Part shown: one piece after another, positions 2,068 through 55,208 of the stretch | Numbering within the stretch: position 1 is the stretch's first letter | Layout of the letters: each line of letters opens with the position of its first letter | DNA from: Candidatus Sungiibacteriota bacterium | GTDB lineage: Bacteria; Patescibacteriota; Minisyncoccia; Sungbacterales; HO2-52-23 | Reading direction: 5' to 3' | Assembly: GCA_016432465.1 (NCBI GenBank) | Contig: CP066690.1 | Span: forward strand, 122,702-186,701 | Length of the DNA stretch: 64,000 nucleotides | Position numbers and translations under genes: made by a program | The notes under the pieces: generated by a model | The model's input: the letters and a program-made list of their open reading frames with translations, nothing else | The model's database searches: none | Told to the model about the DNA's origin: nothing

Positions 2068-2640
2068 TCATGCAAATAAGGCCCGTTCAACCAAATCGCA
2101 TATAATATGTCCAAGTGTTATGTGCGTCTCCTGAATGCGTTGCGTATCGTCTGAAGGCACCACCAAGGCGCAATCAACCAAGTCCTTAAGCTTTCCGCCC
2201 CCACGGCCCAAAAATCCGATCACCCGCAAGTTTCGTTTTTTTCCTTCCTCCACTGCCCGCATCACATTGGGCGAGTTGCCACTGGTGCTTATCGCCAACA
2301 AAAGATCCTTGGGGTGGTTGGCCAAGGCCTCCACTTGTCTGGCAAAAATCAGATCATATCCGTAATCGTTGCCCAAGGCCGTAAGAATAGAGGTATCAGT
2401 AGTAAGCGCTATAGCCGGCAGGGCCCGGCGCTCTTTCCTGAATCTGCCCACCAGTTCTCCGGCTATATGCTGGGCATCAGCCGCACTGCCGCCGTTACCC
2501 ATAATAAGCACCTTACCCCCGCCTTGATACGTATCCGCGATCATCTCGGCGGCCTGCACTACCAAATCAGCCAGTGTCTCGGCTGATTTTACTTTTACCT
2601 CGGCGCTCTCCTGCAATTGTCTTATAACTTCTTTTTTCAT
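2068..2640 (-). CDS. gmhA: SIS-domain phosphoheptose isomerase (D-sedoheptulose-7-phosphate isomerase, GmhA-like)
   Basis: 190 aa. SIS motifs [11 protein letters not shown] and [10 protein letters not shown]; size and pattern match GmhA. Confidence 0.7.
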
Positions 2641-3491
2641 ACGTAGTGGCTGTCAAAACGCCGACAAGCTTCTTGGTAGCGTTCTGGTGTTCCAATATCT
2701 AATAATTCTCCCTTGGCAAGAAATCCTCTACACTTTCCGCTTTCCGCAAGTTTAGGAAAAACGTCATATTCTAAGGAGAATGTTTTATCCTGCGGAAAAA
2801 AAACTGTAATTTCTTTCCCCATCAGATATATTCCTGCACTAATAAATCCCCCCACCTTCCCAGCGGGGTATTGGACCCCGCGGGAAGGATTTATACGGCG
2901 CCCATTCATCCCCGCAACAAGGGAAGTCTGACTTCCCAAGCTGCGGGAATTCTGGGAAGGTGGGGGGACAAATCGGGCCAGGGTATTTAAATCTTTCTCA
3001 TGAAAAGCAGTAATGAGGAGGTCGTCATTACAAATTACTGTTCCTCCGTCGGTTTTTGCCCTGACGGCAAGCGCAAACGACGCAACCGGTGCAAGCTTTT
3101 TGTGGGTACGCAGGAGTCCGGAAAAATTAACAGGGCAAAAGGAGTCGCCGTTCATTACAAAAAAGGGGTCACTGCTTATAAGCGGGAGTGCTTTTTTCAG
3201 AGCTCCCCCCGTTCCCAGAGGCGTCTTCTCCTCCGAAAATAAAATTTTAACATCAGGGTCTTTACCGTATTTTTTTTTCACATGCTCTTTCACCTGTTCA
3301 CCCAGATGCCCGATACATAAAATAAAACGCCGAAACCCAACCCGACTTAGATCTCCTAGCAAAAGGTCAATAAACGCCAGCTCGCCGATTGGAGCCAATA
3401 CCTTGGGACGATCCTTCACTACCGTCTGCAAGCGCACTCCAAGGCCCCCGCAAAGAATTACAACATCAGTTTTGGAAAGTGGAACGTACAT
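2637..3491 (-). CDS. Sugar-1-phosphate nucleotidyltransferase (HddC/GmhC-like, GDP-heptose type) carrying an in-frame insertion of about 40 aa from a palindromic repeat element
   Basis: N-terminus [13 protein letters not shown]...PKVLAPIG is an NTP_transferase G-loop. At 284 aa it is about 40 aa longer than typical. The extra segment ([40 protein letters not shown]) is encoded exactly by the 120-bp palindromic element at 2848-2967. Confidence 0.6.
2848..2967. mobile_element. About 120-bp GC-rich palindromic MITE/RPE-like element, copy 1, inserted in frame within the nucleotidyltransferase CDS
   Basis: Inverted termini CCCCCCACCTTCCCAG (2848-2863) and CTGGGAAGGTGGGGGG (2952-2967). Internal nested hairpins GCGGGGTATTGGACCCCGC and CCCGCAacaaGGGAAGTCTGACTTCCCaagcTGCGGG. 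A near-identical copy is at 29708-29828. Confidence 0.6.
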
Positions 3492-5489: not shown

Positions 5490-6914
5490 TTAACGCCTGA
5501 TATAAACATCAAATTTACTGCATACGACATCGGCAAATTGCTTTCCCGTATCAGTCACAACGATGGTGTCATCCGTAAGTTCAACGATGCCGTCATCTTG
5601 ACACTGCTGCAGCGCTACCATCTCGGGCTGGAAATATTCCGCAAATCTTATATCGTACTTCGTCTCCAGCTCCCTTAAATCAAGTAAAAAGTAATTGCGG
5701 ATGGTCTGTATAATTTCACGACGGAGCTGGTCGTCCCGACTCAGCTTGTGTCCCCGGAAAACTGGAAATTGGTTATGCAGAACGGCTGCCGTATAATCTT
5801 TAAGTCCGGTTTCGGGCGAACTAAAAATATTTTGAAAGTCGTAAAGCGATGCCAAACCGCTCACTGCGCCAACCCCAACACCCAAGACCGCCTGATACCT
5901 GCCGGCTGTAACGCCCATACGGTTCCAGGCCATTTTTCCTTCCCTCATGGCCTCAACTACATCATCGGCGGGTTTTGCAAAATGGTCATAACCAGTACGA
6001 ATATATCCCCCTTCCGTTAAAATTTCCGTGGCCTCAAGAAACAACATCTTGCGCTCGGCATTATCAGGGAAAGACGGCATCAACAACTGGTGAGGGAAAA
6101 ATTGCGGTATAAAGTGCATATAGTTTAAGCAGATCCTGTCCGGAGCCATTTCCACTACCTTTTTCATGGTCCTACGCATAGATTCTCTGGTTTGCTTGGG
6201 TAAACCGCAGATAATGTCAAAGTTTATTCCGTTTCTAAAAAGGCGCCGCAGCTCTGGAGCAATAAGTCTCTCAGTTAACACGGCCGGTTGTACCCGCGCC
6301 ACTGCCTTTTGCACTTCCAAATCAAAATCCTGAACGCCAAAAGAAACTCTGGAAATGCCCTTGCTGGCATAATAGCGCATCCCTTCTTCTTTCACGTGAC
6401 GCGGATCAATCTCTATGGCAAACTCGTCCAAAGAATCAAGGTCTGCGACTTCCCTTAACTTTTCAAGCAACCGATCAAAGTCCTCGTTTGTAAGATAGGT
6501 CGGAGATCCGCCGCCAAGATGTACCTCCCGAAAATTTGGCCGGATTTTGTTTTCTTCCAAAAACCGCTTTAATAGCTCTACCTCCTGATAAAGCACCTCC
6601 AGATATCTTTTTATGTCGCTGTAATTTCTGCTTATAACTACATGGCAGGTACAATAAAGGCACTGGACAGGACAATGGGGAATATGAACATAAAGCATGA
6701 GCGGCACCGTCGGATTTCCAAGAAAAAGTTCCCGCAACGCGTCACGATACTGCTTGTCTCCCTCTTCTGCGGACTGGAAAGCAGTCCAAAAACGCAAATT
6801 AGGATATTCGGTGTACATAAAAGAGCGTTCACCGTATTTCTTAACCAAACGGGGGTCGGGATTGCGCAGGGTCACGACTCTATCTCCAAAAAGAGAACTG
6901 TATAGATTATACAA
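5490..6914 (-). CDS. HemN-like radical SAM enzyme (oxygen-independent coproporphyrinogen oxidase-like / class C rSAM family)
   Basis: 474 aa with HIPHCPVQCLYC CxxxCxxC cluster. Overall length and layout are HemN-like. Confidence 0.65.
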   Translation of the reverse strand: MYNLYSSLFGDRVVTLRNPDPRLVKKYGERSFMYTEYPNLRFWTAFQSAEEGDKQYRDALRELFLGNPTVPLMLYVHIPHCPVQCLYCTCHVVISRNYSDIKRYLEVLYQEVELLKRFLEENKIRPNFREVHLGGGSPTYLTNEDFDRLLEKLREVADLDSLDEFAIEIDPRHVKEEGMRYYASKGISRVSFGVQDFDLEVQKAVARVQPAVLTERLIAPELRRLFRNGINFDIICGLPKQTRESMRRTMKKVVEMAPDRICLNYMHFIPQFFPHQLLMPSFPDNAERKMLFLEATEILTEGGYIRTGYDHFAKPADDVVEAMREGKMAWNRMGVTAGRYQAVLGVGVGAVSGLASLYDFQNIFSSPETGLKDYTAAVLHNQFPVFRGHKLSRDDQLRREIIQTIRNYFLLDLRELETKYDIRFAEYFQPEMVALQQCQDDGIVELTDDTIVVTDTGKQFADVVCSKFDVYIRR

Positions 6915-6961
6915 AAATAGCCGCCATCTGTCGATAGCTAAAAGCCATACCGCATGCCCGC

Positions 6962-6995
6962 TCCAAAAACTGGAAAACCCGCCTGAAGGGCGGGT
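6962..6995 (-). terminator. Rho-independent terminator candidate downstream of the B12-rSAM gene
   Basis: Hairpin CCCGCCtgaaGGGCGGG (6978-6994) followed on the minus strand by a T-rich tract. Confidence 0.45.
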
Positions 6996-7003
6996 AGAAA
7001 AAC

Positions 7004-8371
7004 TTAGGCAGGTTGGGAGCGCGTTTCAACCTTGCCGCCAAAAAACTCAAAAGAATTCAGTCCTCTCTCCCTAAGTCTTTGTAGAAGCTCCGTATAATTT
7101 TTGATAATTTGCTCCGGGGTCATACTTCTCCCCCAAGGAGTTTCTTCTTCATATACAAAAGTAAGTTGCGGCAGCTCGTCCCTGTACTTCCCGTGCTGAT
7201 GCATCATCTTTTTCCAGTCACGGAGCACTTCCCGAATACCAAATCTTTCCGGATGATTATAAACTTCTGTCCCCGGACGTAACGTAAAAATAGCCAAATA
7301 AACAAGGTCGGGTTGGGTTTCTTCAATAAAAGACCACGTTCGCTCCACAATGTCCTCTGGCTCTCCCGGAAGACCAATAATTAAATAGATCCTTGCCTCA
7401 ATGTCATTTTCTTTCAGCACCCTTATGGTGTTTTTAGCTCCTTCAACCGTGGTACGCTTGTTAATTATATCAAGCGATCTTTGCCAAACGCTCTCTACTC
7501 CCAAACCCATGGCCATGCATCCGCTTTGTCTGGCCAAAGCCGCAAGAGAGGACGTAATCCCATCCACACGACATTGCCCCCTCCAAACAATGCTGGTTCT
7601 GCCTATGGCTTCCAGATGACGCTGGGCCTGATCCTCTTTTAGGGGAAGAACGATTTCGTCCGAAAGCGACAAACCCTGAATTCCATATTGGGATTTAAGA
7701 TATTCTATTTCCTCTTCCACCCTTTCAGGGGCCCGATATCTTATACCGGGCACCTCAAGCCGCGCATACTCAATGGCGCAAAAATGACAGCGGTACGGAC
7801 ACCCCCTACTAAACATGGCCGTAGTGCCCAAAAGTTCTTCATAGCCCATTTTGTGTTTGAGATTCATAACACTCTTCCTTGCAGTTGCGCTAGCCGGAAG
7901 AAAATGTCTGCGCCAGTGAGGATAAATATTAATATCTACCGGTTTTGGGTCTCTATATATACGCTCTAGCCTCTGCCCCATGAAGTCTTCCAGCGCCTGA
8001 ATAACGGTTCGTTCTCCTTCGCCCAGAATTAAAGCATCAAATACCTCCAGTGACTCTTGAGTAAACATATTAGCATGCGGCCCGCCCGCAATGTGCCGCG
8101 CCCGGGGATAGTGACTGCGCAACGATTTCACTATGGAACATTGCTCTTCATAGTCCAGGGTATAAACAGAATGCAGATAAACATCGCACTCGGGAATGTG
8201 GTAGATGGCCGAGTCTCTTTTGATGCCGCGTAGATCAACTAATCTGGCCTCCACGTCGCGTCCGAAGTGATCCTCCAAAATGGTTAATAACTGAAAGTGA
8301 ACAAAGGGGTCCCCGCGAAAAGGGTCAAACAGATAGTCGCTCGACGGGAATATAAATCCTACCTCCAGCAT
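7004..8371 (-). CDS. B12-binding (cobalamin) radical SAM enzyme
   Basis: N-terminal B12-binding-like domain, then rSAM cluster SRGCPYRCHFCA. Confidence 0.7.
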   Translation of the reverse strand: MLEVGFIFPSSDYLFDPFRGDPFVHFQLLTILEDHFGRDVEARLVDLRGIKRDSAIYHIPECDVYLHSVYTLDYEEQCSIVKSLRSHYPRARHIAGGPHANMFTQESLEVFDALILGEGERTVIQALEDFMGQRLERIYRDPKPVDINIYPHWRRHFLPASATARKSVMNLKHKMGYEELLGTTAMFSRGCPYRCHFCAIEYARLEVPGIRYRAPERVEEEIEYLKSQYGIQGLSLSDEIVLPLKEDQAQRHLEAIGRTSIVWRGQCRVDGITSSLAALARQSGCMAMGLGVESVWQRSLDIINKRTTVEGAKNTIRVLKENDIEARIYLIIGLPGEPEDIVERTWSFIEETQPDLVYLAIFTLRPGTEVYNHPERFGIREVLRDWKKMMHQHGKYRDELPQLTFVYEEETPWGRSMTPEQIIKNYTELLQRLRERGLNSFEFFGGKVETRSQPA

Positions 8372-8472
8372 TTTTTGTCCCTGTTATAAAAGATCATTAT
8401 TTTTAATTTTACTATAAAAACTGCTCTCTAGCAAGCTTGGCATGGAAACTTGGATGATTATTGGCGTCAAAC

Positions 8473-8506
8473 TTAAAAAGAAAGTACCGCATCGGGGTGA
8501 TGCGGC
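8473..8506 (-). terminator. Rho-independent terminator candidate
   Basis: Hairpin CCGCATCggggtGATGCGG (8487-8505) followed by a T-run on the minus strand, downstream of the stop at 8523. Confidence 0.5.
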
Positions 8507-8522
8507 AGTAAGTATCTGCTGC

Positions 8523-10379
8523 TTAATTAGCTGGCTGACGGAGTCGTATATCTTCTTCCACGCGGCGCATAATCTCGTTTAGTCCGAGGACGGCAAAACG
8601 CAAACGCCAGTAGGCTACGCTTTCGGAGAATGTCTTGGCCAGCGCAAGTCGTCTTTGGGCCTCTTCCGGTCTTCCCAACTTAAATTCCAAAACTGCAAAA
8701 TAAAGATTGACTAGAGCGTTATTGGCGTGGGTTTTGTCGCAAATGTTCACAAAGAGCTTTCTTAACATTTCAAGTTTTATAGGATTTTCCTCCCGCCAGA
8801 TTTTTCCTTCATAATTTATTTTCCAGTCCATCACCATCCAAATATCCGCGATCTCGTCTCTCTGGGGAACATAAACAGGATCTCCATCCAGTAAATTTAC
8901 AAATTCCTTGGCCCGCTCCTTTTGTCCGGCGACATTACGGATATGCTGTCCGGTGGATCCTGTAAACGGCCGCTCTGTTCCGTCAATCAGCTGCTGTTGG
9001 GTAAGAAGACCGGTATTGAGCGCGTGGTTGGTAATTTCTACGCCGGGAATGTAGTTCAAAACCTGAATAGTGGACCAATCGGGCTGCGTTTCAACGCAAA
9101 GCTTAATGGTCTGCCAAACCTCACCAATAGTTTCATCAGGAAACCCAACGATTAAAAGAAACTTGGTAAAAATCTGGGGATATTTTCGCAGTATCTCCAT
9201 GCAACGGTGGAAGTGGCGCACACCGCTAGGTTTCTTAACGGATCGCAAAATCCTCTCACTGCCTGACTCTACGCCAAAACTCAAGCCAATGCATCCTGAT
9301 TCGTACGCGGCCTGTGCAATTTCCTCGGTCATGGCAGAAGCAATGATGCCATTGGACGCATCCCACGTGATTCCAAGGTTCCTCCTGACCATTTCGTTAA
9401 ATAAAGCCACCGGGCCTCCATAAAGAAGATCATCGTCCAGCCACATAATATGCCGGACTCCATAGGTATCACGGATGTACTCAATTTCATCCACCACGTC
9501 GCTAGCCGGCCGGTCAAAGACTCCCCGACCGTTAAAATTACGTACCGAACAGAAAGTGCATTGAGCCCGACACCCGACGTTAGCCAGAACCGTAGAAGCG
9601 CGGGTGCCTTCCGGCCATAACCAATAGTAAACCCCTATTCGTCCGTTTTTGGGACTGTAATCGCCAATCCTTAAATCATGGTAGTAGGGCCGGACACTTA
9701 CCGAGGTTCTGTTTTTAGCGGCCCTGTTTTTTAAAACGGTATATTCGCCATCAATTAGCGCGGCTATCTGTGATAGCGCCTCTTCTCCGGCTCTGCCGTT
9801 TACAAAATCCAGCAAGTCACCAAAAGCCGTATTGCCTTCGTAAAGACCAATAAAATCAATCTCCGGACAATCTTTCAAAACCATTTCTCCTGCCTGCGTA
9901 GTATGTACTCCTCCGGCAATAATGGAGACGTAGGGATAATTTTCACGGATAAACTCCGCAGTTCTTTTCATGGCGCGGTGTGTAACTGTAAACATGCAGG
10001 TCAGAGCAACAAGGTCGGGTTGAAAATTTTCTATCCTTTCCCGAAGCCATTCTTCCCACACATCGTAGTTAAACCCCTGACGCCCTGATTGTAATTCTTC
10101 CTGAAGATCAAAGTTGAGATCAATAAGGTCTGTCTCGTATCCGCGCTCTCTTAGGTTTCGGGAAAGAACGCCAAGCCCGTATGGAGGATAAACCGGATAG
10201 CGATTACCGACTGCAACTTCCACAGAGTAATCTTCTTTGGGAACATGGACCGGATTAACCAGTAGAACACGACGGCAACCTTGAGGCAATTTAAATCGTA
10301 GCTTCTCGGCTATTAGGCGCCGAAGCAGGTTATCTGCCTTTGACGTAACTGTTTTTAGCTCCACCACCAGCTGCCCCAA
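8523..10379 (-). CDS. B12-binding radical SAM enzyme with C-terminal helical/TPR-like extension
   Basis: rSAM cluster NVGCRAQCTFCSV preceded by a B12-binding-type Rossmann region; 618 aa. Confidence 0.7.
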   Translation of the reverse strand: MGQLVVELKTVTSKADNLLRRLIAEKLRFKLPQGCRRVLLVNPVHVPKEDYSVEVAVGNRYPVYPPYGLGVLSRNLRERGYETDLIDLNFDLQEELQSGRQGFNYDVWEEWLRERIENFQPDLVALTCMFTVTHRAMKRTAEFIRENYPYVSIIAGGVHTTQAGEMVLKDCPEIDFIGLYEGNTAFGDLLDFVNGRAGEEALSQIAALIDGEYTVLKNRAAKNRTSVSVRPYYHDLRIGDYSPKNGRIGVYYWLWPEGTRASTVLANVGCRAQCTFCSVRNFNGRGVFDRPASDVVDEIEYIRDTYGVRHIMWLDDDLLYGGPVALFNEMVRRNLGITWDASNGIIASAMTEEIAQAAYESGCIGLSFGVESGSERILRSVKKPSGVRHFHRCMEILRKYPQIFTKFLLIVGFPDETIGEVWQTIKLCVETQPDWSTIQVLNYIPGVEITNHALNTGLLTQQQLIDGTERPFTGSTGQHIRNVAGQKERAKEFVNLLDGDPVYVPQRDEIADIWMVMDWKINYEGKIWREENPIKLEMLRKLFVNICDKTHANNALVNLYFAVLEFKLGRPEEAQRRLALAKTFSESVAYWRLRFAVLGLNEIMRRVEEDIRLRQPAN

Positions 10380-10435
10380 TATCGTCTTAAGTGCTGGTCA
10401 TTATTATACTACAAAACCAGTTTCAAACAAGACCG

Positions 10436-10470
10436 GAATCAAAAACTAAATCTCCACCCAAGGGTGGAGA
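10436..10470 (-). terminator. Rho-independent terminator candidate
   Basis: Hairpin TCTCCACCCaaGGGTGGAGA (10451-10470) with T-rich tail on the minus strand, just downstream of the stop at 10476. Confidence 0.5.
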
Positions 10471-10475
10471 GACAA

Positions 10476-11456
10476 TTAACTAGAGAAGAGATTAAATCGT
10501 GTCTGCCGGGCGAAATCTTTGTGGGTACGGTACCACTCCACAGTTTCGCGAATTCCTTCCTCCAACGAAATCTGCGGCTCAAAACCAAGAGACCGCGCTC
10601 TTTGAACGTCCAGGACTCTTCGGCGGTCGCCGCTGGGCCCGGAATCCTTCCAAATTGTTTTCGGCGTACACTCTGAATGCCGTAAAACTATCTCTAACAC
10701 CTGCCGTATGGTGTATCCTATGCCACTTCCCAGATTTACCGGCTCGGAGACTCCTTTCTTGGCAACCAGCATCATTCCTCGCGCCACGTCCCGCGCATGA
10801 ATGAAGTCCCTCACCTGCAGTCCGTCACTTTCCATCCTCAAAGGATTCCTGCCGCCTACTGCCTCCCGAATCAAATAAGGAATCACCATGGCCGCATCCG
10901 ACTCAAAATCATCATACGGTCCATAGGTATTGGCCGGACGCACAATGGAAATTTTTTCCCAACCATACTGGAGCCTATAGGCTTCGGCCTGAATCTCCCC
11001 CATGCGTTTAGCCAGCCCCGCAAACCAATCATTCTTAGAAGGAAAACCTTTCCAGACGTCATCTTCGTGGAATACTTCAGCCGGAGGATAAACGGCAAGA
11101 GAGCTTGCCAGTAAATAACCGTCAGCCCCCTTCTCCCGAGCGGCGCTAAGCATGTTTACGTCAAGCATCAAATTCATTTCAAAAAGCGTAGCGGGTTTTT
11201 CTTTGTTAAACCGCGGGGGGCCCTTGGCACATAATAAATTAAACACATAGTCCATCCCCTCGCAGACATGCAAACAATTATCCATTTTTAGCAAATCAAT
11301 CTTGCGAAACTCTGCTTGCTTGTGCGCACGCGATTCATGATCCAGAGATGCGATCCGGACTTGAGCTCCTTCCTGAATTAAAATCTCCACCAAGGGTATT
11401 CCAATAAGCCCAGTGCCTCCGGCAACCAACACTTTTTTATTGGCGAAGTCAAACAT
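10476..11456 (-). CDS. NAD-dependent epimerase/dehydratase (extended SDR; GDP-sugar 4-epimerase/reductase-like)
   Basis: N-terminal KVLVAGGTGLIGIPLVE Rossmann motif; extended-SDR length of 326 aa. Confidence 0.7.
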   Translation of the reverse strand: MFDFANKKVLVAGGTGLIGIPLVEILIQEGAQVRIASLDHESRAHKQAEFRKIDLLKMDNCLHVCEGMDYVFNLLCAKGPPRFNKEKPATLFEMNLMLDVNMLSAAREKGADGYLLASSLAVYPPAEVFHEDDVWKGFPSKNDWFAGLAKRMGEIQAEAYRLQYGWEKISIVRPANTYGPYDDFESDAAMVIPYLIREAVGGRNPLRMESDGLQVRDFIHARDVARGMMLVAKKGVSEPVNLGSGIGYTIRQVLEIVLRHSECTPKTIWKDSGPSGDRRRVLDVQRARSLGFEPQISLEEGIRETVEWYRTHKDFARQTRFNLFSS

Positions 11457-13426
11457 TAGAAGTGCCCTGCTTTTTCGGGTTCACATTTGATATTGCCATA
11501 AAGATACGCGCCTCTTTTGTTGCCATACCAGACAACAAGTTTATACCAATCCTCCCAGCTCTGCCAATGCTCGCTGTTGCGATCAACCCTGTAAATAAAA
11601 CTTCCCCGGACAAGCGCTACGTCACACATTGCGCGTACGCCCCGATAAAATTCCCAGATATTGTAGGAGAGCGTAAGAACGGTGTCTTCTTCAACAAAGG
11701 GAAGTTTTATAAGACCCTGATTAAGCTCTATGGCTTGACGGAGTAACTCTTCGTCAACAACGATATTATTTGTTCTGAAGAACTGCGTAAGGACCCGCCG
11801 GGCCTCGTCATAAAATTGATCCAGTTTTCCTTCTCTGCAAAGCTTAATAAAGATAAATTCGTCCACCGGCCAATAGATATTCAACCACTCCGGCGCCGGA
11901 CAATACTCTATGCCCCCGGCCATAATGCTTTTTGCCTTTGCGCGGAAAAAAGATTGTATTTCCTTAAGCACCGGGAATTCTTCCAGTTCCCCTTCGGTAA
12001 ATACCTCAATCAGACGACGATAAGACACGCCCGTGGTTTGACGCAAAACTATCAACGGTATCTGAAAAACTTTGTCAAAGTGCAGAAGCGAGGTCGTCCA
12101 GCAAAACACTCTGGTGCGCGCCCAGTCTTCCCGCGTCAGGGTGCTGGTTTCTACCACAATATCTTCGCTTTCTGCTACCTGATCTGGTGTTTCATCAATA
12201 ACACCGTGAAAGATAACTGCTTTAACCTCAACGGTTTTAAGTCCATACCTCGCTACATACTGCGGATCGGACATGGGAGCATTGGGCATCATAGAAAGAT
12301 TGCCAAACTGAATCCGGTTGTGCTGTCCCTGCTCAATGGTAAGCGCAACTCCATCGGCAAAAGAATTATAGGTTTCTTGGGGTAAAGCAATAAGCATATC
12401 GCTGTAAGTATCAATGCCGGCCTCGGTAAACCTTCTCTGAAGATTACGGAAGGCATCCATAGAAATATTTGTTCTCTCCACTGCCCGCAAAACTTCCGGA
12501 TCCTGCGACTGAAAAGCAATGGTTACACCGGTACTTAAACCGGCATCGGCAAGAATTTTTTGCGTCTGAAAAATACGTTCCTCTGCGTTTTTGGCATTCT
12601 GCGTAGAAAGGGCTCTGGGCAGACCGTAGTGCGCTTTGATCTCCGCGGCTTTTCGTGCAATATCAACGTCTCTCGGCAGCAGTCCGAAGTTGGCGTCACA
12701 ACAAAATATAAACTGTATCTTATGCTGCGCAAACCACTCCAGCTCTTTAAACAAAATCTCCAGATCAAATCTAATTACTTTATTTTTAGTGTTGGAGCCC
12801 CAGTCGCAGAAAGAACAAAAAAAAGGACAGCCGCGATTAGTTTCCCACAACGCATCCCATCTTTGATTAGGGTATGCTTCCATCAAAGGAGTAAAGGTTC
12901 CGTTAAGGTAGGGTGAGGGCATGACAGCGAGACTTCGCATCCTCGGAAGCCATTGCGTCTGAACACAGTTGCCCGAAGGGTCCAGAAAACTTACCGAAGG
13001 TACTTCCCCCCATTCTCCGGAAAAACTTTTTTCCAAAATATGGACAAAGGCTTGTTCTCCCTCGTTATGGCAGGCAAGATCTACAAAACGGTTTTTTCTC
13101 AAAAATTCTTCCGAACGATCCGGTACTTCGGGCCCGCCAAAAACAGTAATAACACTTGGTCTTTTTTGTTTTAGGCGCCGGGCAATTTCCAAAGAAATAT
13201 TGCGGTTCCAAACATAAAGACTGAATCCAACAAGATCAGCCTCCAGCAGATGCTCCACGGCGATGTCGACCGGAATACGTTTGTAAACCGGCAGAAGAAA
13301 TTGGTAGTTTCCGGGGTCAGCAACATTCTTTTGAGCATAAACCTGAAGGTCGGCGACCGAAAGCGGAAGATACGTTACTCCGGAGAATTCATTATTGATC
13401 TGCACCAAACCTATTTTCAGCGCCAT
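11456..13426 (-). CDS. B12-binding radical SAM enzyme (third paralog)
   Basis: rSAM cluster NRGCPFFCSFCDWG; N-terminal B12-binding-like region; 656 aa. Confidence 0.7.
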   Translation of the reverse strand: MALKIGLVQINNEFSGVTYLPLSVADLQVYAQKNVADPGNYQFLLPVYKRIPVDIAVEHLLEADLVGFSLYVWNRNISLEIARRLKQKRPSVITVFGGPEVPDRSEEFLRKNRFVDLACHNEGEQAFVHILEKSFSGEWGEVPSVSFLDPSGNCVQTQWLPRMRSLAVMPSPYLNGTFTPLMEAYPNQRWDALWETNRGCPFFCSFCDWGSNTKNKVIRFDLEILFKELEWFAQHKIQFIFCCDANFGLLPRDVDIARKAAEIKAHYGLPRALSTQNAKNAEERIFQTQKILADAGLSTGVTIAFQSQDPEVLRAVERTNISMDAFRNLQRRFTEAGIDTYSDMLIALPQETYNSFADGVALTIEQGQHNRIQFGNLSMMPNAPMSDPQYVARYGLKTVEVKAVIFHGVIDETPDQVAESEDIVVETSTLTREDWARTRVFCWTTSLLHFDKVFQIPLIVLRQTTGVSYRRLIEVFTEGELEEFPVLKEIQSFFRAKAKSIMAGGIEYCPAPEWLNIYWPVDEFIFIKLCREGKLDQFYDEARRVLTQFFRTNNIVVDEELLRQAIELNQGLIKLPFVEEDTVLTLSYNIWEFYRGVRAMCDVALVRGSFIYRVDRNSEHWQSWEDWYKLVVWYGNKRGAYLYGNIKCEPEKAGHF

Positions 13427-25781: not shown

Positions 25782-25789
25782 TTTGGTAA

Positions 25790-25970
25790 AAATCCTATTA
25801 TCTCTGGCAGAATACCTCGCGGCTTTGCCGCGAGGATGAATGCCAGCCCGGAGTCCCGGCTTGCCGGGACGGAGGAGATAACCCCGACGGTGTCGTCCGA
25901 TTTCAGGACGCGTATTCCATCAGGAATACCGCGCAGCTTGGGAAGTCAGACTTCCCTTGCTGCGCGGTCG
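25790..25970. repeat. Intergenic cluster of GC-rich hairpins including a GGGAAGTCaGACTTCCC palindrome module
   Basis: Hairpins CCTCGCGGCtttGCCGCGAGG, GTCCCGGCttGCCGGGAC and GCGCAGCttGGGAAGTCAGACTTCCCttGCTGCGC. The last one shares the GGGAAGTCnGACTTCCC core with the 120-bp element and with 45794-45810. Confidence 0.4.
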
Positions 25971-25971
25971 G

Positions 25972-28825: not shown

Positions 28826-29671
28826 TTAGCCCCTCCAGCCCGGAGGAGGCACGCAGCCACTCTGGCCTGGAAAAGGATTGGGGTCGTAAATTTTCGGACG
28901 ATTCGCAAGATCAATACCCTTGGCCTTCAGCCCCTCACGGTCATCGTAATAGATCGTGAGAACGGCATTCGGCGTCTCGGTTGCCTTATCAAAGCGTACT
29001 CGAACAACCCGATGCCCAACCTGATGACCAAAACCAGTACCGATGTTCTGCGCTCGCCCCTGAAGCTCCGACAAACCAGACGTGGTGCTCTTGACAGAGC
29101 GCAACTTCTCGCCAAACCTACGGGTCACATTCGGCTCATCCATAAAATAGTAGTCCGGCCGCACAGGAACTGGCGGCTTTTCGTAAAACACGGCACAGCC
29201 AATGACTCCCACATCTGTCGGCTTACCCATTTGAGCCGCATACGATTCCCCGAAGGTGGTTGAAAACAAAAACTGGGCAACGGTTTCATCGTTTAGGCGC
29301 CACCCGGGAATGACAATGCTAGAAAAACCATCTACCACATAACCGCTTGACTTATAATTTCCGGTTTTCCCATCCATGACTGAAAGCCCATCAACTGTAA
29401 TTACGGCCAAAAGTCTCCGAGCAGAATGGTTATGAAATTGTAAAGAGTAGGCAGAACCCTTTCTCCCTTCTACATAGGTTCTACCTTCGTGTAGGTACTC
29501 TTTAATCGCACTGCCATAAACCAGCACGTCTAACTCAAAACCCCCAAAACCTTCTCCGTAAAACCAATGCTGCACTGGTTCACTCCTCTCCGGTGGACTT
29601 CTGCCCGGACCACCCGGGACTTCTGCCACCACTGGAGTTTTTAACTCCAGCGATCTGGAGGATGATGACAT
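28826..29671 (-). CDS. Hypothetical protein
   Basis: Uninterrupted 281-aa ORF with ordinary amino-acid composition; no family recognised. A cluster of small hairpins at 28740-28815 downstream may be its terminator(s). Confidence 0.35.
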   Translation of the reverse strand: MSSSSRSLELKTPVVAEVPGGPGRSPPERSEPVQHWFYGEGFGGFELDVLVYGSAIKEYLHEGRTYVEGRKGSAYSLQFHNHSARRLLAVITVDGLSVMDGKTGNYKSSGYVVDGFSSIVIPGWRLNDETVAQFLFSTTFGESYAAQMGKPTDVGVIGCAVFYEKPPVPVRPDYYFMDEPNVTRRFGEKLRSVKSTTSGLSELQGRAQNIGTGFGHQVGHRVVRVRFDKATETPNAVLTIYYDDREGLKAKGIDLANRPKIYDPNPFPGQSGCVPPPGWRG

Positions 29672-29707
29672 CCTTCCAAGTCGCTGGAGTCAAAAAATTC
29701 AATAAAT

Positions 29708-29828
29708 CCCCCCACCTTCCCAGCAGGGTATTGGACCCCGCGGGAAGGATTTCTACGGCGCCCATTCGTCCCCGCAGCAAGGGAAGTCTGACTTCTCAAG
29801 CTGCGGGGTATTCTAGGAAGGTGGGGGG
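29708..29828. mobile_element. About 120-bp palindromic MITE/RPE-like element, copy 2 (intergenic)
   Basis: CCCCCCACCTTCCCAG ... CTAGGAAGGTGGGGGG. About 90% identical to 2848-2967, including the AATAAATCC leader and the GGGAAGTCTGACTTC core. Confidence 0.6.
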
Positions 29829-29922
29829 ATAAAAGAGCCAGACCGTATATTACTTAGAGTATAGCAAATAAAATAATCCCTGTCAATTAAAAAAATATAC
29901 CGCCGCAGGGCGGTATATTCCT

Positions 29923-31424: not shown

Positions 31425-33020
31425 CTATCTTGCTGTCCAACCCCCATCAATAACTAAGGCGGAGCCTGTCATGTATGAGGAGGCGTGGTGTGATGCGAGA
31501 AACAAAATAGCCGCATTGTATTCATGCTCTTCGGCCATACGGCCAAGGACGGTACGTTTGCTGTACTCCTTAAGGAAAATCTCGTTTTGTCCGGCATAAA
31601 CGCCGCCGGGAACAAGGGTGTTTACGCGGACCGGAATCCCAGATTGTCTGCAGTATTCCGCAAGCCATCTGGTAAAATTTAAAACCCCGGCTTTGGCCAC
31701 GCTGTAGGTTATGGGTTTATAAAATTCTTCTCCATTTTCTCTACGAAAATCGTACACGGATTGATCCGGAGCAACCAGACCATAGGTGGAAGAAATATTT
31801 ATAATGCTCCCCTTCTTTCCTGATGTTTTAATGTGGCGGATAAATTCCTGCGATACAAAGTGGGCACCGGTTAGGTGAGAATGAAGAACTTCATGCCAAG
31901 CATCTTCCGGATAGTCTTCGTAAGGACCGTTGACGGCCGCAGAAGCATCAGGAGACGCGTCCAGGCCGGCGTTATTTACTAAAATTGTAGGAACCCCAAA
32001 ACGCGCCACCACCTCCCTAAACCCCCTTGCTACTTCCTGCTTTTTAGTAATATCAACTTTATGACAGGAGACAGAGAAACCGCCTTCCTGCAGGGCCCGA
32101 ATTTTTTGACTGGGAATGTCTTTTAAATCAAAAATGGCTACAGCCGATCCTGCCCCAACTAATGCTTTTGTAAATTCGCCCCCCAACCTTCCCATGCCGC
32201 CGGTAACAACTGCTATCTCACCGGTTAAATCAAAAAGGTTTCTGTACAAGGAATCTTTTATTTTTATGTCCAGGTCGGGACGAATTTCTTTGGCGCGTCG
32301 GGCCGCCCTTTCCTGTAAAATGGCCTCGGCGCGTTCAAAGTCTTTTTCCGTATCTATATCTACGGCTTCGTCAATAACGTGATAACGGACCCGGTCTCCA
32401 GCCATAGACTTATTTTCTACTAAAGTTTTCCAGCGTATAGCCGAGGAATCAATGTAAAAATAAGCTCGGGGGTAAGACTGACGAGGCTTGTTGTAGGCAT
32501 CTCTGATGCCGGTAAAAGATTCTGTTAGAAACGGCTCAATAGCGTCTCCTTTTATACGCCACATTTTGTAAGGATGCTTGGCCGGCTCCATAATGGTGTA
32601 AGCAGAATCGGCCGTTGGATCGTCCAACAGCAGTTTAATCGTTGCGTCAACATCTTCGGTGCGGCAAATAGGAGAAGTGGGCGGAAGACGAACAATAACA
32701 TCGGCCTTCCATCCCTCGTTTTCTGCCAGCCACACGGCCGCATGATGTAACCAATCAAAATCCGGCACATGATCTTCGGCCAGCTCCTTGGGACGCAAAA
32801 ATGGAGTTTCGGCTCCATAACGCCTTCCAATTTCGGCATATTCCGGGGAGTCGGTTGATAAAACTACCCGCGTAAGGTATTGGGAACGTTTGGCCGCCTC
32901 AATGATCCAAGACAGAAGCGGTTTCCCTAAAAGCGGCTTTATGTTTTTGTGCGGTATGGTTTTGGAACCGGAACGCGCTCCAACTACTCCAAGAATTTTT
33001 AGATTTTGGAACTCGGTCAT
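31425..33020 (-). CDS. Fusion protein: N-terminal NeuA-like CMP-nonulosonate cytidylyltransferase plus C-terminal SDR oxidoreductase
   Basis: N-terminus ILGVVGARSGSKTIPHKNIKPLLGKPLL (CTP_transf_3 / NeuA pattern). The C-terminal half has AVVTGGMGRLGGEF and an SDR layout. Confidence 0.6.
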   Translation of the reverse strand: MTEFQNLKILGVVGARSGSKTIPHKNIKPLLGKPLLSWIIEAAKRSQYLTRVVLSTDSPEYAEIGRRYGAETPFLRPKELAEDHVPDFDWLHHAAVWLAENEGWKADVIVRLPPTSPICRTEDVDATIKLLLDDPTADSAYTIMEPAKHPYKMWRIKGDAIEPFLTESFTGIRDAYNKPRQSYPRAYFYIDSSAIRWKTLVENKSMAGDRVRYHVIDEAVDIDTEKDFERAEAILQERAARRAKEIRPDLDIKIKDSLYRNLFDLTGEIAVVTGGMGRLGGEFTKALVGAGSAVAIFDLKDIPSQKIRALQEGGFSVSCHKVDITKKQEVARGFREVVARFGVPTILVNNAGLDASPDASAAVNGPYEDYPEDAWHEVLHSHLTGAHFVSQEFIRHIKTSGKKGSIINISSTYGLVAPDQSVYDFRRENGEEFYKPITYSVAKAGVLNFTRWLAEYCRQSGIPVRVNTLVPGGVYAGQNEIFLKEYSKRTVLGRMAEEHEYNAAILFLASHHASSYMTGSALVIDGGWTAR

Positions 33021-51511: not shown

Positions 51512-52189
51512 TTAGTATTCCACACTCTCTTTGCCGGTCATTAAATCAACGGAGTGAACGTGCGGAAGTGCGGAAAGAGAAGAAACAACCCTTTCAGGAC
51601 CCAGGCCCTCGGCAAGTTCAACCGCCAAAGAATATTCCATCTCCTCACCGGAAGACTTTATATGTAACACATGGTAAGTAACACCCAACGATCGGAAAAG
51701 TTCATTAAGCTTTATGGGATCAAACGCGCTGCCGGCCTGAAGCATGATAAGGTATCCTGTCCGAAAGGCCGCACCCAGACGCTTACGATGAACCACTAAA
51801 AGTGCTATGGCAATAAAAGTAAGGGCAATGCCGGCAATAGCATAATTGCCGGTGCCAATGGCCACTCCTTCTACCAGAGCGAAAAAAACATAAGCTACGT
51901 CTTTAGTATCTTTTACAATAGTGCGAAATCTTATCATGGAAAAAGCACCCAGCAGAGCAAAAGCACCGATCAAATTCTCTTGTACCACCATCATAACTAC
52001 CGAGCCCAGAGTACAAACCATCATCAGGGTCACTACAAAAGAACGCGAATAAGAAAGTCCGCGGTGGGTTTTACGATATACCCCAACAATCACCGCTGCG
52101 GCTGCAAAAGACAATAAAATATTCAGCACAATTACGGCGGCATTAAGTTCAGTGGAGGTTAAGTTGTAGAAATTTTGCATCGAAGGCAT
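51512..52189 (-). CDS. DUF4956-like integral membrane protein
   Basis: About 225 aa with 4-5 TM helices. This type typically accompanies VTC-domain and CotH genes. Confidence 0.5.
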   Translation of the reverse strand: MPSMQNFYNLTSTELNAAVIVLNILLSFAAAAVIVGVYRKTHRGLSYSRSFVVTLMMVCTLGSVVMMVVQENLIGAFALLGAFSMIRFRTIVKDTKDVAYVFFALVEGVAIGTGNYAIAGIALTFIAIALLVVHRKRLGAAFRTGYLIMLQAGSAFDPIKLNELFRSLGVTYHVLHIKSSGEEMEYSLAVELAEGLGPERVVSSLSALPHVHSVDLMTGKESVEY

Positions 52190-52206
52190 AATTAATATCT
52201 GAAAAC

Positions 52207-52935
52207 TTATCTTGGCATGGGGTGGAACGATCGTAACGCCTCCATGGCGCGGCCATATTTGGAAATACTAATTCGTTCCAGCTCCAAAAATTTAATAAGA
52301 GTTCCGAACCAAGCAGGAAGATTCTTAACAAATTTCACCTCCATAATAACCATATTTTGCTCAATCGGAACCCACGAGAAAGGATACCATAAATCGGGTT
52401 TTGCGCAAGTCTGAAGCCCGGAATCAAAAGTAATACGGAGGAGCTCACCAGCATAAAATCCTACATAAGGGCGGCGCTGATACTTAACAAGGAGCAACGG
52501 TTTACGGCACCCCATGATTATTTTGGAAAGTATGGCCTCGCCTTCCTGCCGGTATTCGTGACCGGACAAAGACTGAAAAAAAGAAGGAGCTCCTGCCTTA
52601 AGTAACTTCTCAAAATCAGAGCGTCCCAAACGGATCCTGGTTTTTCTCGTCAGGGCATCAAAACGCTCTTTGGCTTCGAGCCAAATTTCATTCGTGTTCT
52701 CGGTGATCCGGGGCGCATAAATCCTGGCCCGAACCTTAGTACGATGTAGAAACCCACCACTTTTATCGTAGTAATCGCTCTTGGGCGGGGTGTCAAAATA
52801 AAGACTCGTGACAGTATACTCCCCTGCCTGCGCATTAGTATCAGGCTTCAATCCTACAGACTGAATAAAACGCTCCGCGCGCCGCGCGGCTACGGGATCA
52901 ATAAGGTATTTAAACTCAAAACGATACTTGGTCAT
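52207..52935 (-). CDS. VTC-domain (polyphosphate-polymerase-like / CYTH-like) protein
   Basis: YRFEFKYLI...TSLYFDT...KVRARIY pattern characteristic of bacterial VTC domain proteins. Confidence 0.55.
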   Translation of the reverse strand: MTKYRFEFKYLIDPVAARRAERFIQSVGLKPDTNAQAGEYTVTSLYFDTPPKSDYYDKSGGFLHRTKVRARIYAPRITENTNEIWLEAKERFDALTRKTRIRLGRSDFEKLLKAGAPSFFQSLSGHEYRQEGEAILSKIIMGCRKPLLLVKYQRRPYVGFYAGELLRITFDSGLQTCAKPDLWYPFSWVPIEQNMVIMEVKFVKNLPAWFGTLIKFLELERISISKYGRAMEALRSFHPMPR

Positions 52936-55208
52936 GGCCTTAAAGGAGTAGCAACCTCAATTTGAGAGCGCCCATCGCTTTTAATATCTTCCTTATTTTT
53001 TAGAAAAGTCGGATTTATCACCAGCGCGTAACCGCCGCCAAATTCATGTTTTTTTTGATAGGCGGAGATGGCAACATCGTCCTCCTTAAAAATATTGGAA
53101 AAAATACGGGCGCGGCTTGAGTCTTTAACCGCTACTCCCACGGAACAGGAAGTAATTACGTTTTTGATAATAATCGGCCGCGAGGCCTCACCCACACTAA
53201 TTCCTTTATCAGCGCAGCCAAGAATAATATTTCTTTGAATCAAAACCTGCGAAAAACTTAGATCAATAGCATCCCCGCCGGTCTCTTTTGTGCCCAAGGG
53301 GGAGGCAAAGGTGTTATCTTCCACAATGCTAGTCGCATCCACGGCGTCAAAGTCAAGAGCATCGGAATTTGTCTTGAAAAAGGTGGAGCGACGTATTATG
53401 GCCCGGCCGTATTTTACATTAATTGCATCGTCATCATGCGAGTCAGAAAAAATACTTTGAGAAACCTCAAGATCACTATCGTGTACTGCCAACATACCCG
53501 TGGCTCTGATACCGTTTATCTCAACACCTGATCCTCCGGAAACTTGAGCAAACTCAACCCTGCTGGGAGTTTTACTATTATTAAGTATCAAAATAGAGCC
53601 CCATGGTTTTTGCGCATCCAGAGCCGCAACAATGACTGGTGCGCCGCTGCTACCCACGATCTCCACCGGACCGTAGGAAACTAAGGATACCCCTTCACCC
53701 AGCAGTAGCGTTGTTCCCGCATTTATACGAAGTGTAACGCCCGCAGGGATGATCGTAGTCTCGGTAATAATTGTAGTTCCGGTGCCAAGTGAAACCGTCT
53801 TTTCATCAAGCGCATAAAACCGGGGATTATAGGCCAAAAACTCTATCAGGCTTCGGCTGATTTCTGGAAAACGTGCAAATTCGGTAGGCATAACTAAACT
53901 GCCGGTTTTTTGCAAAAAATACGGCGGTGACACTCGCCCCAAAAAAGCCGTGGCTTTTTGAAAATTACTTTCCGTAAGATCGCGTAACCTGCTTATCTCG
54001 CTCAAATACTTCAGATTGCTGTGAAATTTTAGAGAGTCGCTCAAAAATTCAGGTTTCATGCGTCTTGCTAAACTATCATAAAAGGCAAGATCGTCGCGCA
54101 GGTTATCTTCGTTAAGATAGCTCTTTAGAACCTCGTCGCGCTCTTTACGAAATTCCGGGATGGAAAAGACGCGGCTGGCAAGTTTCTCCGCTGCCTCGTC
54201 CCGCAGATACTCACCCATTTCCATACCCATGTCAAAAGGTACTGTCTCAAATTTTCCGGTGGCGGTATTAAAAATAACAATCAGGTTTGCTGCCTCCCAC
54301 TGATGAGCGCTGTCAGCCAGCGCCCGCAGCGCATGCCAAGCATAAAACTTAGGTAAATCAATAATATGCGGTATGAGTTTAGTGAACATGGTATCATCGG
54401 TCTTTTCAATAATCTCAACTAAAGCTTCCAGTTCCGGAAACGACTTTGTGTTATTTTGGGTATAACTCTTCCAGCGGCGCAATCCTTCCCTGGAAAAAAG
54501 CGGGGCAGTATCTTCAAAAAGGCCGGGTTTTCCGTCATCAACCGCAAGAATATGGGAAGTATCGGGAAGGCCGGAACGCGAAAGCCAACGATTGGACCAC
54601 TGCTCCCAAGCCATATAAACGCCTGCATCCCAACCGTTTATTTTCAGCCGCACAAACCAAATATCCGGCACGTTAAGTCCCAATTTACGAGCACGGTAGG
54701 CGTTTAAAAGTTCTATAAAATAGAGCCGATCATAGGGAATCACCAAATTCAGACCCTTCATGCCTTGAAAACGAGACTCTTTAGAAAAATTTATCCGCCA
54801 GGACTTCTGCGCTGCCGCCCAATGGTTATTTTTAAAACCCCTATACCTTAGTTCTACCCGCTCCCTAAAATCTCCGGCAGCAAAGTCGGCTTTAACCCTT
54901 ACCCGATTATCATCAAGAAGCGGCGCCCCAAAAGGGTCAGGAAGACCGGCGTTTAAGGTGGCAAGATCCTGCTTTTTTATAACAAGCTTGTAAACAGGGA
55001 GCCGGGTTTTGTAGAAAAAATACGGGGAAAACACTAAATCAGGAAGTTTGCGCACCGACCTGTAGGTTGGCACCAATTGCTGAAACATCGGGCTTTGTAT
55101 CAAACGATAACGAAGTGATTCTGATTTTATAACAATAAGTCCGGCCACAAATATAAGGACAAGAAGGAGGACTGATATTTTTTGATTTTTATAAACCGAC
55201 GCAAACAT
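52932..55208 (-). CDS. CotH-family atypical protein kinase fused to a C-terminal right-handed beta-helix (PbH1 repeat) domain; N-terminal signal/anchor
   Basis: N-terminal TM segment. CotH-like core across residues 100-450. The C-terminus has PbH1-like repeats (NIILGCADKGISVG, NVITSCSVGVAVKDSS). Confidence 0.55.
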   Translation of the reverse strand: MFASVYKNQKISVLLLVLIFVAGLIVIKSESLRYRLIQSPMFQQLVPTYRSVRKLPDLVFSPYFFYKTRLPVYKLVIKKQDLATLNAGLPDPFGAPLLDDNRVRVKADFAAGDFRERVELRYRGFKNNHWAAAQKSWRINFSKESRFQGMKGLNLVIPYDRLYFIELLNAYRARKLGLNVPDIWFVRLKINGWDAGVYMAWEQWSNRWLSRSGLPDTSHILAVDDGKPGLFEDTAPLFSREGLRRWKSYTQNNTKSFPELEALVEIIEKTDDTMFTKLIPHIIDLPKFYAWHALRALADSAHQWEAANLIVIFNTATGKFETVPFDMGMEMGEYLRDEAAEKLASRVFSIPEFRKERDEVLKSYLNEDNLRDDLAFYDSLARRMKPEFLSDSLKFHSNLKYLSEISRLRDLTESNFQKATAFLGRVSPPYFLQKTGSLVMPTEFARFPEISRSLIEFLAYNPRFYALDEKTVSLGTGTTIITETTIIPAGVTLRINAGTTLLLGEGVSLVSYGPVEIVGSSGAPVIVAALDAQKPWGSILILNNSKTPSRVEFAQVSGGSGVEINGIRATGMLAVHDSDLEVSQSIFSDSHDDDAINVKYGRAIIRRSTFFKTNSDALDFDAVDATSIVEDNTFASPLGTKETGGDAIDLSFSQVLIQRNIILGCADKGISVGEASRPIIIKNVITSCSVGVAVKDSSRARIFSNIFKEDDVAISAYQKKHEFGGGYALVINPTFLKNKEDIKSDGRSQIEVATPLRP

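Follow-up and report, generated by a model that had tools for sequence, protein, structure and literature searches.

A putative MITE-like palindromic element read in frame through genes of a Patescibacteria lineage

The gene at positions 2637–3491 (minus strand) of a 64-kb window (the whole 64,000-nucleotide stretch analyzed here, from contig CP066690.1 of Candidatus Sungiibacteriota bacterium) contains a GC-rich, palindromic element of about 120 bp and remains open from end to end. This raises the question of what kind of element can occupy the interior of a conserved enzyme gene, here one for an HddC-like sugar-1-phosphate nucleotidyltransferase, and whether it resides in other genes in the same manner. 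The original prediction held that it belongs to a family of selfish, structured elements, analogous to the Rickettsia palindromic elements (RPEs), that is tolerated inside proteins. Our analysis supports that proposal, with the likeness to RPEs being one of behavior only. Specifically, we consider it probable (about 0.8) that the element is a non-autonomous, mobile palindrome of a Patescibacteria (candidate phyla radiation; CPR) lineage, resembling a miniature inverted-repeat transposable element (MITE), and that it is tolerated in frame inside proteins.

Copies A and B and the HddC-like host gene

The host gene and the two full copies of the element in the window, termed A and B, are laid out as follows.

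2637–3491, minus strand: HddC-like sugar-1-phosphate nucleotidyltransferase gene, an intact 284-aa open reading frame (ORF) with the insert at approximately residues 174–216
2843–2847, plus strand: left flank of copy A, comprising the target duplication TAAA (2843–2846) and then the terminal T of the element (2847)
2848–2967, plus strand: core of copy A, 120 bp, C6ACCTTCC...GGAAGGTG6, with 16-bp perfect terminal inverted repeats, inside the HddC-like coding sequence; its interior holds two internal hairpins plus an extended inner hairpin and would be translated from the minus strand as 42 residues
2968–2972, plus strand: right flank of copy A, comprising the terminal A of the element (2968) and then the duplicate CAAA (2969–2972)
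29708–29828, plus strand: core of copy B, 121 bp, intergenic, with TAAA at 29703–29706 and 29830–29833

Copy A lies wholly within the intact ORF, as originally described, and has a GC content of 62.5% compared to 46.7% for the whole window. Its inverted termini had been given as 16 bp in length and are exact at both ends: CCCCCCACCTTCCCAG occurs at 2848–2863 on the plus strand and at 2952–2967 on the minus strand, its inverted partner being CTGGGAAGGTGGGGGG. The same sequence recurs at 29708–29723 (plus strand) and, with one mismatch, at 29813–29828 (minus strand) in copy B, which matches copy A in 113 of 121 aligned columns (93.4%, slightly above the approximately 90% first estimated). A search for the terminal repeat that allowed up to three mismatches yielded six matches in the window versus 0.54 expected from shuffled sequences; solo terminal repeats in the 64 kb were not above chance. 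A 13-mer at 32180–32192 (CCCCCAACCTTCC), with one mismatch to the terminal repeat, was evaluated as an element end and rejected as a chance resemblance; it lies in the gene at 31428–33020, where it codes for the glycine-rich TGGMGRLGG motif of a short-chain dehydrogenase domain. Nested hairpins had likewise been predicted, and folding of either strand produces a long outer stem around such hairpins, with energies of −75.2 and −83.2 kcal/mol (z = −7.1 and −9.1 versus dinucleotide shuffles). Screening against Rfam 15 returned zero gathering-level matches in the window; with the threshold relaxed, the region of copy A gave matches no better than chance (E ≥ 0.47).

The host ORF spans 855 bp and reads in frame through copy A. 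Its product matches Pfam NTP_transferase, and its best NCBIfam match is HddC, in two stretches divided by the insert, at a score of 115 bits against an equivalog cutoff of 300; the gene is HddC-like and encodes a candidate D-glycero-D-manno-heptose-1-phosphate guanylyltransferase. Homologs, of which 12 were compared in a full alignment and 61 in a summary one, usually have about 237 aa and are 43–52% identical to the host protein; all of them lack a 42-residue block that sits between the conserved EK motif and the (I/V)(N/S)AG(I/V)Y strand. The original prediction of an extra Pro/Ser/Gly-rich segment of about 40 residues, absent from typical members of the family, is thereby borne out: the block includes 5 Pro, 6 Ser, and 7 Gly, none of the 61 aligned homologs has it, and the alignment indicates that it is not native to this enzyme family. 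All 34 invariant and 53 nearly invariant family positions are kept in the host protein. When 126 bp are removed in silico, DLNTLARF is left between EK and ISAG, which at eight residues is the same spacing as in the homologs.

A structural model generated with AlphaFold (AF2) from a 62-sequence alignment has a predicted template modeling score (pTM) of 0.82, with 201 residues at a predicted local distance difference test (pLDDT) value of 90 or higher, and its best structure matches are the Yersinia HddC crystal structures 5xhw and 6jq8 (template modeling scores of 0.86–0.87). Residues 170–212 have pLDDT values below 50, are without secondary structure, and fall between strands 159–164 and 216–224. 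The model suggests that the insert probably loops out between two beta-strands just past the EK motif and that the enzyme is probably left functional. The host gene is neighbored by a GmhA-like SIS gene and an HddA-like GHMP kinase gene, both intact, and because these genes adjoin it, a heptose pathway, if working, would need the host gene.

Further copies and their reading frames

All six translated frames of copy A were concatenated and searched against 5.8 billion proteins. This returned three proteins only, all from the source 923,469-bp contig, which belongs to a metagenome-assembled genome of a groundwater bacterium in the Parcubacteria group of Patescibacteria: the host enzyme (P0001), P0121 (HYW89_01480), and P0122 (HYW89_04710). 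In P0121 the element lies in a leader peptide directly before the GLTLIE prepilin motif, in frame +2, and in P0122, a LigT/ThpR-type phosphoesterase, a shortened copy sits in frame between the two HxT lobes; both proteins carry the translation of the element in frames and orientations other than those of copy A. An index-free phmmer search of 1.84 billion representative proteins with the 44-aa insert recovered P0001 and P0122 only. Collectively, the source 923-kb genome contains at least four copies (two as DNA in the window and two as in-frame peptides) and one relic.

Metagenomic contigs were scanned for the element with both terminal repeats required to be exact and 70–100 nt apart. The scan yielded 14 loci, 12 of which were homologous over their full length; L013 and L014 were discarded as unrelated hairpins. 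An additional locus (L023) came from a search with a profile of four open-frame peptides of a 99-bp subfamily, which returned three proteins only from the 5.8 billion; this type of search undercounts, since it did not return a known carrier, the SecF protein P0126. P0125 was rejected as a carrier, as it looks like a spurious low-complexity ORF. In GTDB representative genomes, scanning picked up nothing but four hairpins without relation to the element (L001–L004), and no element was found in the viral contigs scanned. The family is apparently rare and lineage-restricted.

The family unit extends from T-CCCCCCACCTTCC at one end to GGAAGGTGGGGGG-A at the other, and its terminal inverted repeats, 14–16 bp long, surround two hairpins; the perfect terminal repeats of the family are TCCCCCCACCTTCC(CAG) and its complement. 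Cores range from 99 to 133 bp, and their frames encode peptides of 33–42 aa only. The usual core is 99 bp, and the window copies form a subfamily with approximately 21 bp more in the second hairpin. This second hairpin shows compensatory substitutions in five of its nine pairs, with a covariation score above that of all 500 shuffles, while the first hairpin is decaying (78% of cells paired). Locus L008 holds two copies less than 1 kb apart, one (L008a, 1277–1375) in frame in a gene for a 493-aa protein and the other (L008b, 2217–2349) after the stop of that gene; L008b has a compensatory change in both terminal repeats (CCCCAC/GTGGGG) and an extra nested hairpin, CCCCCACACCAAAAGTTTTGGTGTGGGGG.

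We called a copy genic where a stop-to-stop frame reads straight through the element, and identified host genes with Pfam. The metagenomic genic sites are as follows.

L007: PAS/HisKA/HATPase_c histidine kinase, element between the N-box region and the DxGxG strand
L010 (protein P0126): SecF, element in the periplasmic domain after the first transmembrane segment
L011 (also L017 and L019–L022; protein P0123): YgjP-like metallopeptidase, domain match in two pieces, identical across four independent assemblies
L015: Peptidase_S11 carboxypeptidase, element after the membrane anchor
L023 (protein P0124): DUF3105 protein, element in the N-terminal tail
L008a: 493-aa protein with no assigned function, element internal

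Together with copy A, P0121, and P0122, these six loci bring the genic sites to nine, in four frames, with five in plus and four in minus orientation. Seven sites are intergenic or in a 5′ untranslated region (5′ UTR): copy B, L005 (the same site as L009), L006, L012, L016, L008b, and L018. The last of these was rejected as a genic copy, as it is without an in-frame upstream start codon, and was counted as 5′ UTR. None of the seven copies splits a gene. The expectation that further copies exist is thus met by P0121 and P0122 in the source genome and by 12 metagenomic loci, with at least seven sites read through in genes identified by Pfam.

Pairwise BLAST of ORFs across the loci showed that the shared similarity comprises only the 35–40 residues encoded by the element, in otherwise unrelated proteins; comparison of the loci to the ORFs of the window likewise recovered element-derived similarity only, plus one unrelated 47% match. 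In one host protein, the insert differs at 3 of 37 residues versus 3 of 456 elsewhere (Fisher p = 0.007), and this faster change is consistent with a loosely constrained passenger loop.

How the reading frames survive can be traced to length and composition. An insertion lengthens the host sequence by 105 bp in all, counting core, termini, and duplication, and by 126 bp for copy A, whose 120-bp core is joined by 6 bp from the element termini and the target duplication; both lengths are multiples of three. The original prediction attributed read-through to an element length that is itself a multiple of three; the read-through of copy A stands, but the length is not inherent to the element, given that the core of copy B is 121 bp and copy A adds 126 bp. 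Stop-free frames number 44 of 78 over 13 copies compared to 28.8 ± 4.1 in composition-matched shuffles, of which 0 of 2,000 reached 44. Most copies are open in frames +0, −0, and −1; a TAA within the duplication closes frame +1, and a TGA within the CATTCA motif closes frame −2. Given an added length divisible by three and stop-free sequence in about four of the six frames, approximately two-thirds of random genic insertions would stay open; with coding sequence making up about 94% of the window, genes must receive most insertions.

Target site, mobility, and competing explanations

A natural pair of SecF alleles supports the mobility of the element. The 90% identity cluster representative of the filled protein, P0126 (335 aa), is P0127 (300 aa), which is 96% identical to it and lacks exactly the 35 inserted residues (105 bp). 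At the DNA level, the empty allele (L024) reads ...CAATTCAAA-ATGAAC-TCG..., with a single copy of the target, and the filled allele (L010) reads ...CAATTCAAA-ATGAAT-[99-bp core]-ATGAAT-TCA...; the genes that flank the two alleles are 94–98% identical. Between the alleles (L010 5459–6481 versus L024 520–1422), 8 of the 13 residue differences fall within about 20 residues past the insertion point. This clustering could reflect a loop that is variable by nature or a local relaxation of constraint caused by the insertion.

Across 14 copies available as DNA, the flanks take the form N[TAAA]T-core-A[TAAA]N, with exceptions in L010 (TGAA on both sides), copy A (TAAA/CAAA), and L012 (a seventh C shifts the register). 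In copy A, the single mismatch of CAAA to TAAA places Val where Ile would stand in the host frame. A 6-bp duplication (ATAAAT) was evaluated and rejected; mismatches to it are confined to its outer positions, and the flanks are therefore best described by an element that ends in T...A and a 4-bp T(A/G)AA duplication, which is perfect in 12–13 of the 14 copies. Relative to the asymmetric interior of the element, T(A/G)AA has the same orientation in all 14 copies (the window plus L005–L023; binomial p = 1.2e-4). Such a fixed orientation is unexpected given symmetric terminal repeats and hints at strand-specific or guided insertion.

The small size, under about 300 bp, without a transposase of its own, the terminal inverted repeats, the target duplication with filled and empty sites, and the dispersed copies are all features of MITEs. 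The element inserts at 5′-T(A/G)AA-3′ with duplication of 4 bp and a fixed orientation to the target. We propose that about two-thirds of genic insertions would keep the frame open and yield a translated, probably disordered loop of 35–42 residues rich in Pro, Gly, and Ser. Selection would then retain insertions at tolerant places, such as inter-strand turns, linkers after membrane anchors, leader peptides, and intergenic DNA, and in a genome that is about 94% coding this would leave a mixture of in-frame genic and intergenic copies.

Several points weigh against this MITE-like interpretation. A classical DDE transposon, with its symmetric terminal repeats, would not typically keep one orientation relative to an asymmetric target, and neither a transposase nor another mobilizing gene with matching ends was found among the 50 of 56 window ORFs covered by the Pfam screen, nor a mobilizing gene with matching ends in the metagenomic loci retrieved. 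The DNA of the source genome in view comprises two full copies and one relic, the other two copies coming from protein sequences alone. The invariance of the outer stem and terminal repeats is largely a detection effect, because only loci with exact terminal repeats could pass the scan; relatedness among the copies means that the open-frame statistic exaggerates their independence; and the low pLDDT of the insert may just reflect the lack of homologs of it in the alignment.

A bolder version of the MITE-like interpretation is possible but on balance unlikely. It holds that the element is active and inserts in fixed orientation at T(A/G)AA through an unconventional enzyme (one that recognizes single strands or hairpins, or a guided recombinase) rather than a DDE transposase, and that, by virtue of its multiple-of-three length and scarcity of stops, it acts as a general generator of new surface loops in the proteins of ultra-small episymbionts. 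If true, a CPR genome would represent the second clear case, after Rickettsia, of a proteome remodeled by selfish palindromes.

Among the alternatives, the one that survives best, though it is improbable, is that the insertion inactivated the HddC-like gene, in which case the open frame would be a recent accident, the gene a pseudogene in waiting, and the element plain junk rather than a tolerated insert. The insert begins only about eight residues past the conserved EK motif of the sugar-binding site, two-thirds of random insertions would stay open by chance, and the function of the host enzyme is a predicted one. However, the ORF is intact over 855 bp with its 34 invariant and 53 nearly invariant positions kept, and the insertion is not brand new, given that copies A and B have diverged by 7%; one target duplicate has already mutated and the frame is still intact. 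The same behavior is observed in at least seven other conserved genes, including the normally essential SecF, one filled gene is identical across four independent assemblies, and the GmhA-like and HddA-like pathway neighbors are intact.

The single orientation of all 14 copies relative to the asymmetric T(A/G)AA, the construction of the element from hairpins, and the failure to find a DDE partner in the window ORF and terminal-repeat scans would also fit a repeat of the repetitive extragenic palindrome (REP)/REPIN or IS200/IS605 type, moved as single-stranded DNA by a tyrosine HUH enzyme (RAYT/TnpA) next to a specific tetranucleotide. This is highly doubtful. The long, perfect terminal inverted repeats of the present element are lacking in those elements, the target is truly duplicated (L010 has TGAA on either side, the empty allele a single TGAA), and there is no GTAG or CGTC tag. 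Moreover, copies here are often genic whereas REPs are extragenic (PMC3733652), and no RAYT or TnpA gene was seen among the Pfam-screened ORFs of the window.

Least plausible of all, and only barely so, is that the element is present in DNA but absent from protein, through excision and religation of mRNA at the terminal stem or a ribosomal hop between the duplicated codons: although the structure is very stable on either strand, matched codons flank the element (e.g., MN...MN, IY...IY, and F(V/I)...FI), and the compensatory changes in hairpin 2 (five of nine pairs) and in the terminal repeats of one copy are compatible with selection on pairing, each genic copy adds a multiple of three and is stop-free in the frame used, neither of which would be needed if the element were removed or bypassed, no gene was found to be split by an out-of-frame or stop-containing copy, no stop codon directly follows any take-off codon, a strand-specific RNA signal is unlikely given genic copies in both orientations, and Rfam returned no ribozyme or intron match. 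This case is partly circular, in that genic copies were recognized by their read-through.

Surroundings in the window and comparison with known systems

Three further features lie near copy B or resemble parts of the element.

25804–25846, minus strand: relic without terminal repeats, matching the short hairpin-2 module of the 99-bp family (nhmmer E = 2e-5), in an intergenic spacer
25923–25967, minus strand: relic without terminal repeats, matching the extended inner-hairpin module of copy A at 41 of 44 positions, in the same spacer
29858–29886, minus strand: promoter-like site TTGACA-17-TATACT, 11 of 12 positions with a TG extension, directly upstream of copy B (consensus match only)

The spacer that holds both hairpin-2 modules (25782–25971) separates transketolase-like and cytidylyltransferase-like genes and has an extra small GC hairpin at 25853–25870; the modules look like a decayed or rearranged copy of the element. 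Copy B, which is intergenic, occupies the gap between two minus-strand genes: an aldehyde dehydrogenase gene, whose stop is at 29923, and a 281-aa gene without a Pfam match (28829–29671), which starts at 29671. Its end is 36 nt short of the ATG of the 281-aa gene. Since the promoter-like site is directly upstream, copy B is probably transcribed as 5′ UTR of the 281-aa gene and would make up most of it. The promoter-like site itself is situated between copy B and a terminator-like hairpin (29899–29920) that follows the aldehyde dehydrogenase gene.

The host gene is part of a sugar-nucleotide and glycan island with two NeuB genes, four radical-SAM enzymes, epimerases, glycosyltransferases, and carbamoyltransferases. 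For a CPR genome of 0.92 Mb this island is remarkably rich: the NeuB paralogs are in tandem (1–843 and 954–2114), the four radical-SAM enzymes are consecutive (5493–13426) and two of them have B12-binding domains, and the island also includes a pair of PhyH-type dioxygenases and a pair of carbamoyltransferases along with several epimerases. Positions 51515–55208 hold a cluster of genes for a DUF4956 protein, a VTC-domain protein, and a CotH kinase with a beta-helix region, followed by a 1144-aa ORF (55233–58664). The minus strand carries 53 of the 56 long ORFs of the window, and about 94% of the window is coding.

To our knowledge, palindromic mobile elements that colonize conserved genes in frame are represented in textbooks by essentially a single case, the RPEs of Rickettsia. 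A 2024 review of MITEs leaves open whether protein evolution of this kind happens outside of Rickettsia (PMC10969869). The present family would extend the phenomenon to a sequence-distinct element in Patescibacteria with very small, densely coding genomes; no earlier description of MITEs or palindromic elements in CPR/Patescibacteria was found in the literature searched, which covered a subset of journals. The added length in multiples of three, together with mostly stop-free frames, offers a mechanistic reason for frame survival, and the filled and empty SecF alleles make mobility directly testable. The inserts also inflate or split domain matches (HddC, HATPase_c, and YgjP each appear in two pieces) and produce spurious similarity between unrelated proteins, which matters for the annotation of CPR metagenomes.

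Bypass elements, such as that of T4 gene 60 and the mitochondrial ‘byps’ of Magnusiomyces, are GC-rich, structured inserts in coding sequence with identical flanking codons, are not known to be under a multiple-of-three constraint, and usually have a stop codon directly after the take-off codon. The present element shares with them the structured insert and the identical flanking codons; unlike them, its genic copies are all multiples of three and stop-free in the frame used. REPs and REPINs are extragenic, imperfect palindromes of 20–40 bp with a GTAG or CGTC tag and an association with RAYT (PMC3733652), whereas the present unit is 99–133 bp, is often genic, has no tag, and duplicates its target.

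Closer parallels are the bacterial MITEs that have open frames and fuse in frame to host genes, namely ERIC/IRU, the 107-bp Correia element (Correia/NEMIS), RU-3, YPAL, QMITE1 of Coxiella, and the MITEs of Anabaena (PMC2229807, PMC10969869). In-frame insertion, which the original prediction took to be the hallmark of RPEs, is therefore not unique to them, as ERIC, Correia, QMITE1, and the Anabaena MITEs also insert in this way (PMC10969869, PMC2229807). Like the present element, these MITEs are small, have terminal inverted repeats, duplicate their target, form long stem-loop transcripts, and occasionally fuse in frame to host ORFs (PMC2229807, PMC10969869). Unlike it, they are mostly AT-rich and predominantly intergenic, with TA termini and TA duplication. 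The termini of the present family are C6/G6, its target duplication is T(A/G)AA in a fixed orientation, and about half of its known sites are genic; its sequences are unrelated to those MITEs, and no parent insertion sequence is known.

The closest likeness in behavior is to RPE-1 to RPE-10 of Rickettsia (Ogata et al. 2000 and 2002, summarized in PMC10969869 and PMC2229807), which are likewise palindromic repeats of about 100–150 bp with terminal inverted repeats of about 12 bp and predicted long stem-loops. RPEs reside both between genes and, with the frame kept, inside unrelated, conserved genes, in a bacterium whose genome is small and which is dependent on other cells, and their peptides appear compatible with the fold of the host protein; 19 of 44 copies in R. 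conorii are inside ORFs, and an RPE-containing gmk is translated and active (PMC2229807, PMC10969869). Translation of the RPE in gmk is experimentally proven, whereas translation of the present insert is suggested by open frames. RPEs are hosted by an alphaproteobacterium and the present element by Patescibacteria, where, unlike RPEs, it is GC-rich in a genome of 47% GC. Target duplication is listed as unknown for RPEs (PMC2229807, Table 1), in contrast to the 4-bp T(A/G)AA duplication and the filled and empty pair described here. Finally, compared by peptide rather than by DNA consensus, the searches of 5.8 billion and 1.84 billion proteins returned zero Rickettsia proteins. The element thus represents a new MITE-like family that behaves like RPEs and is unrelated to them in sequence.

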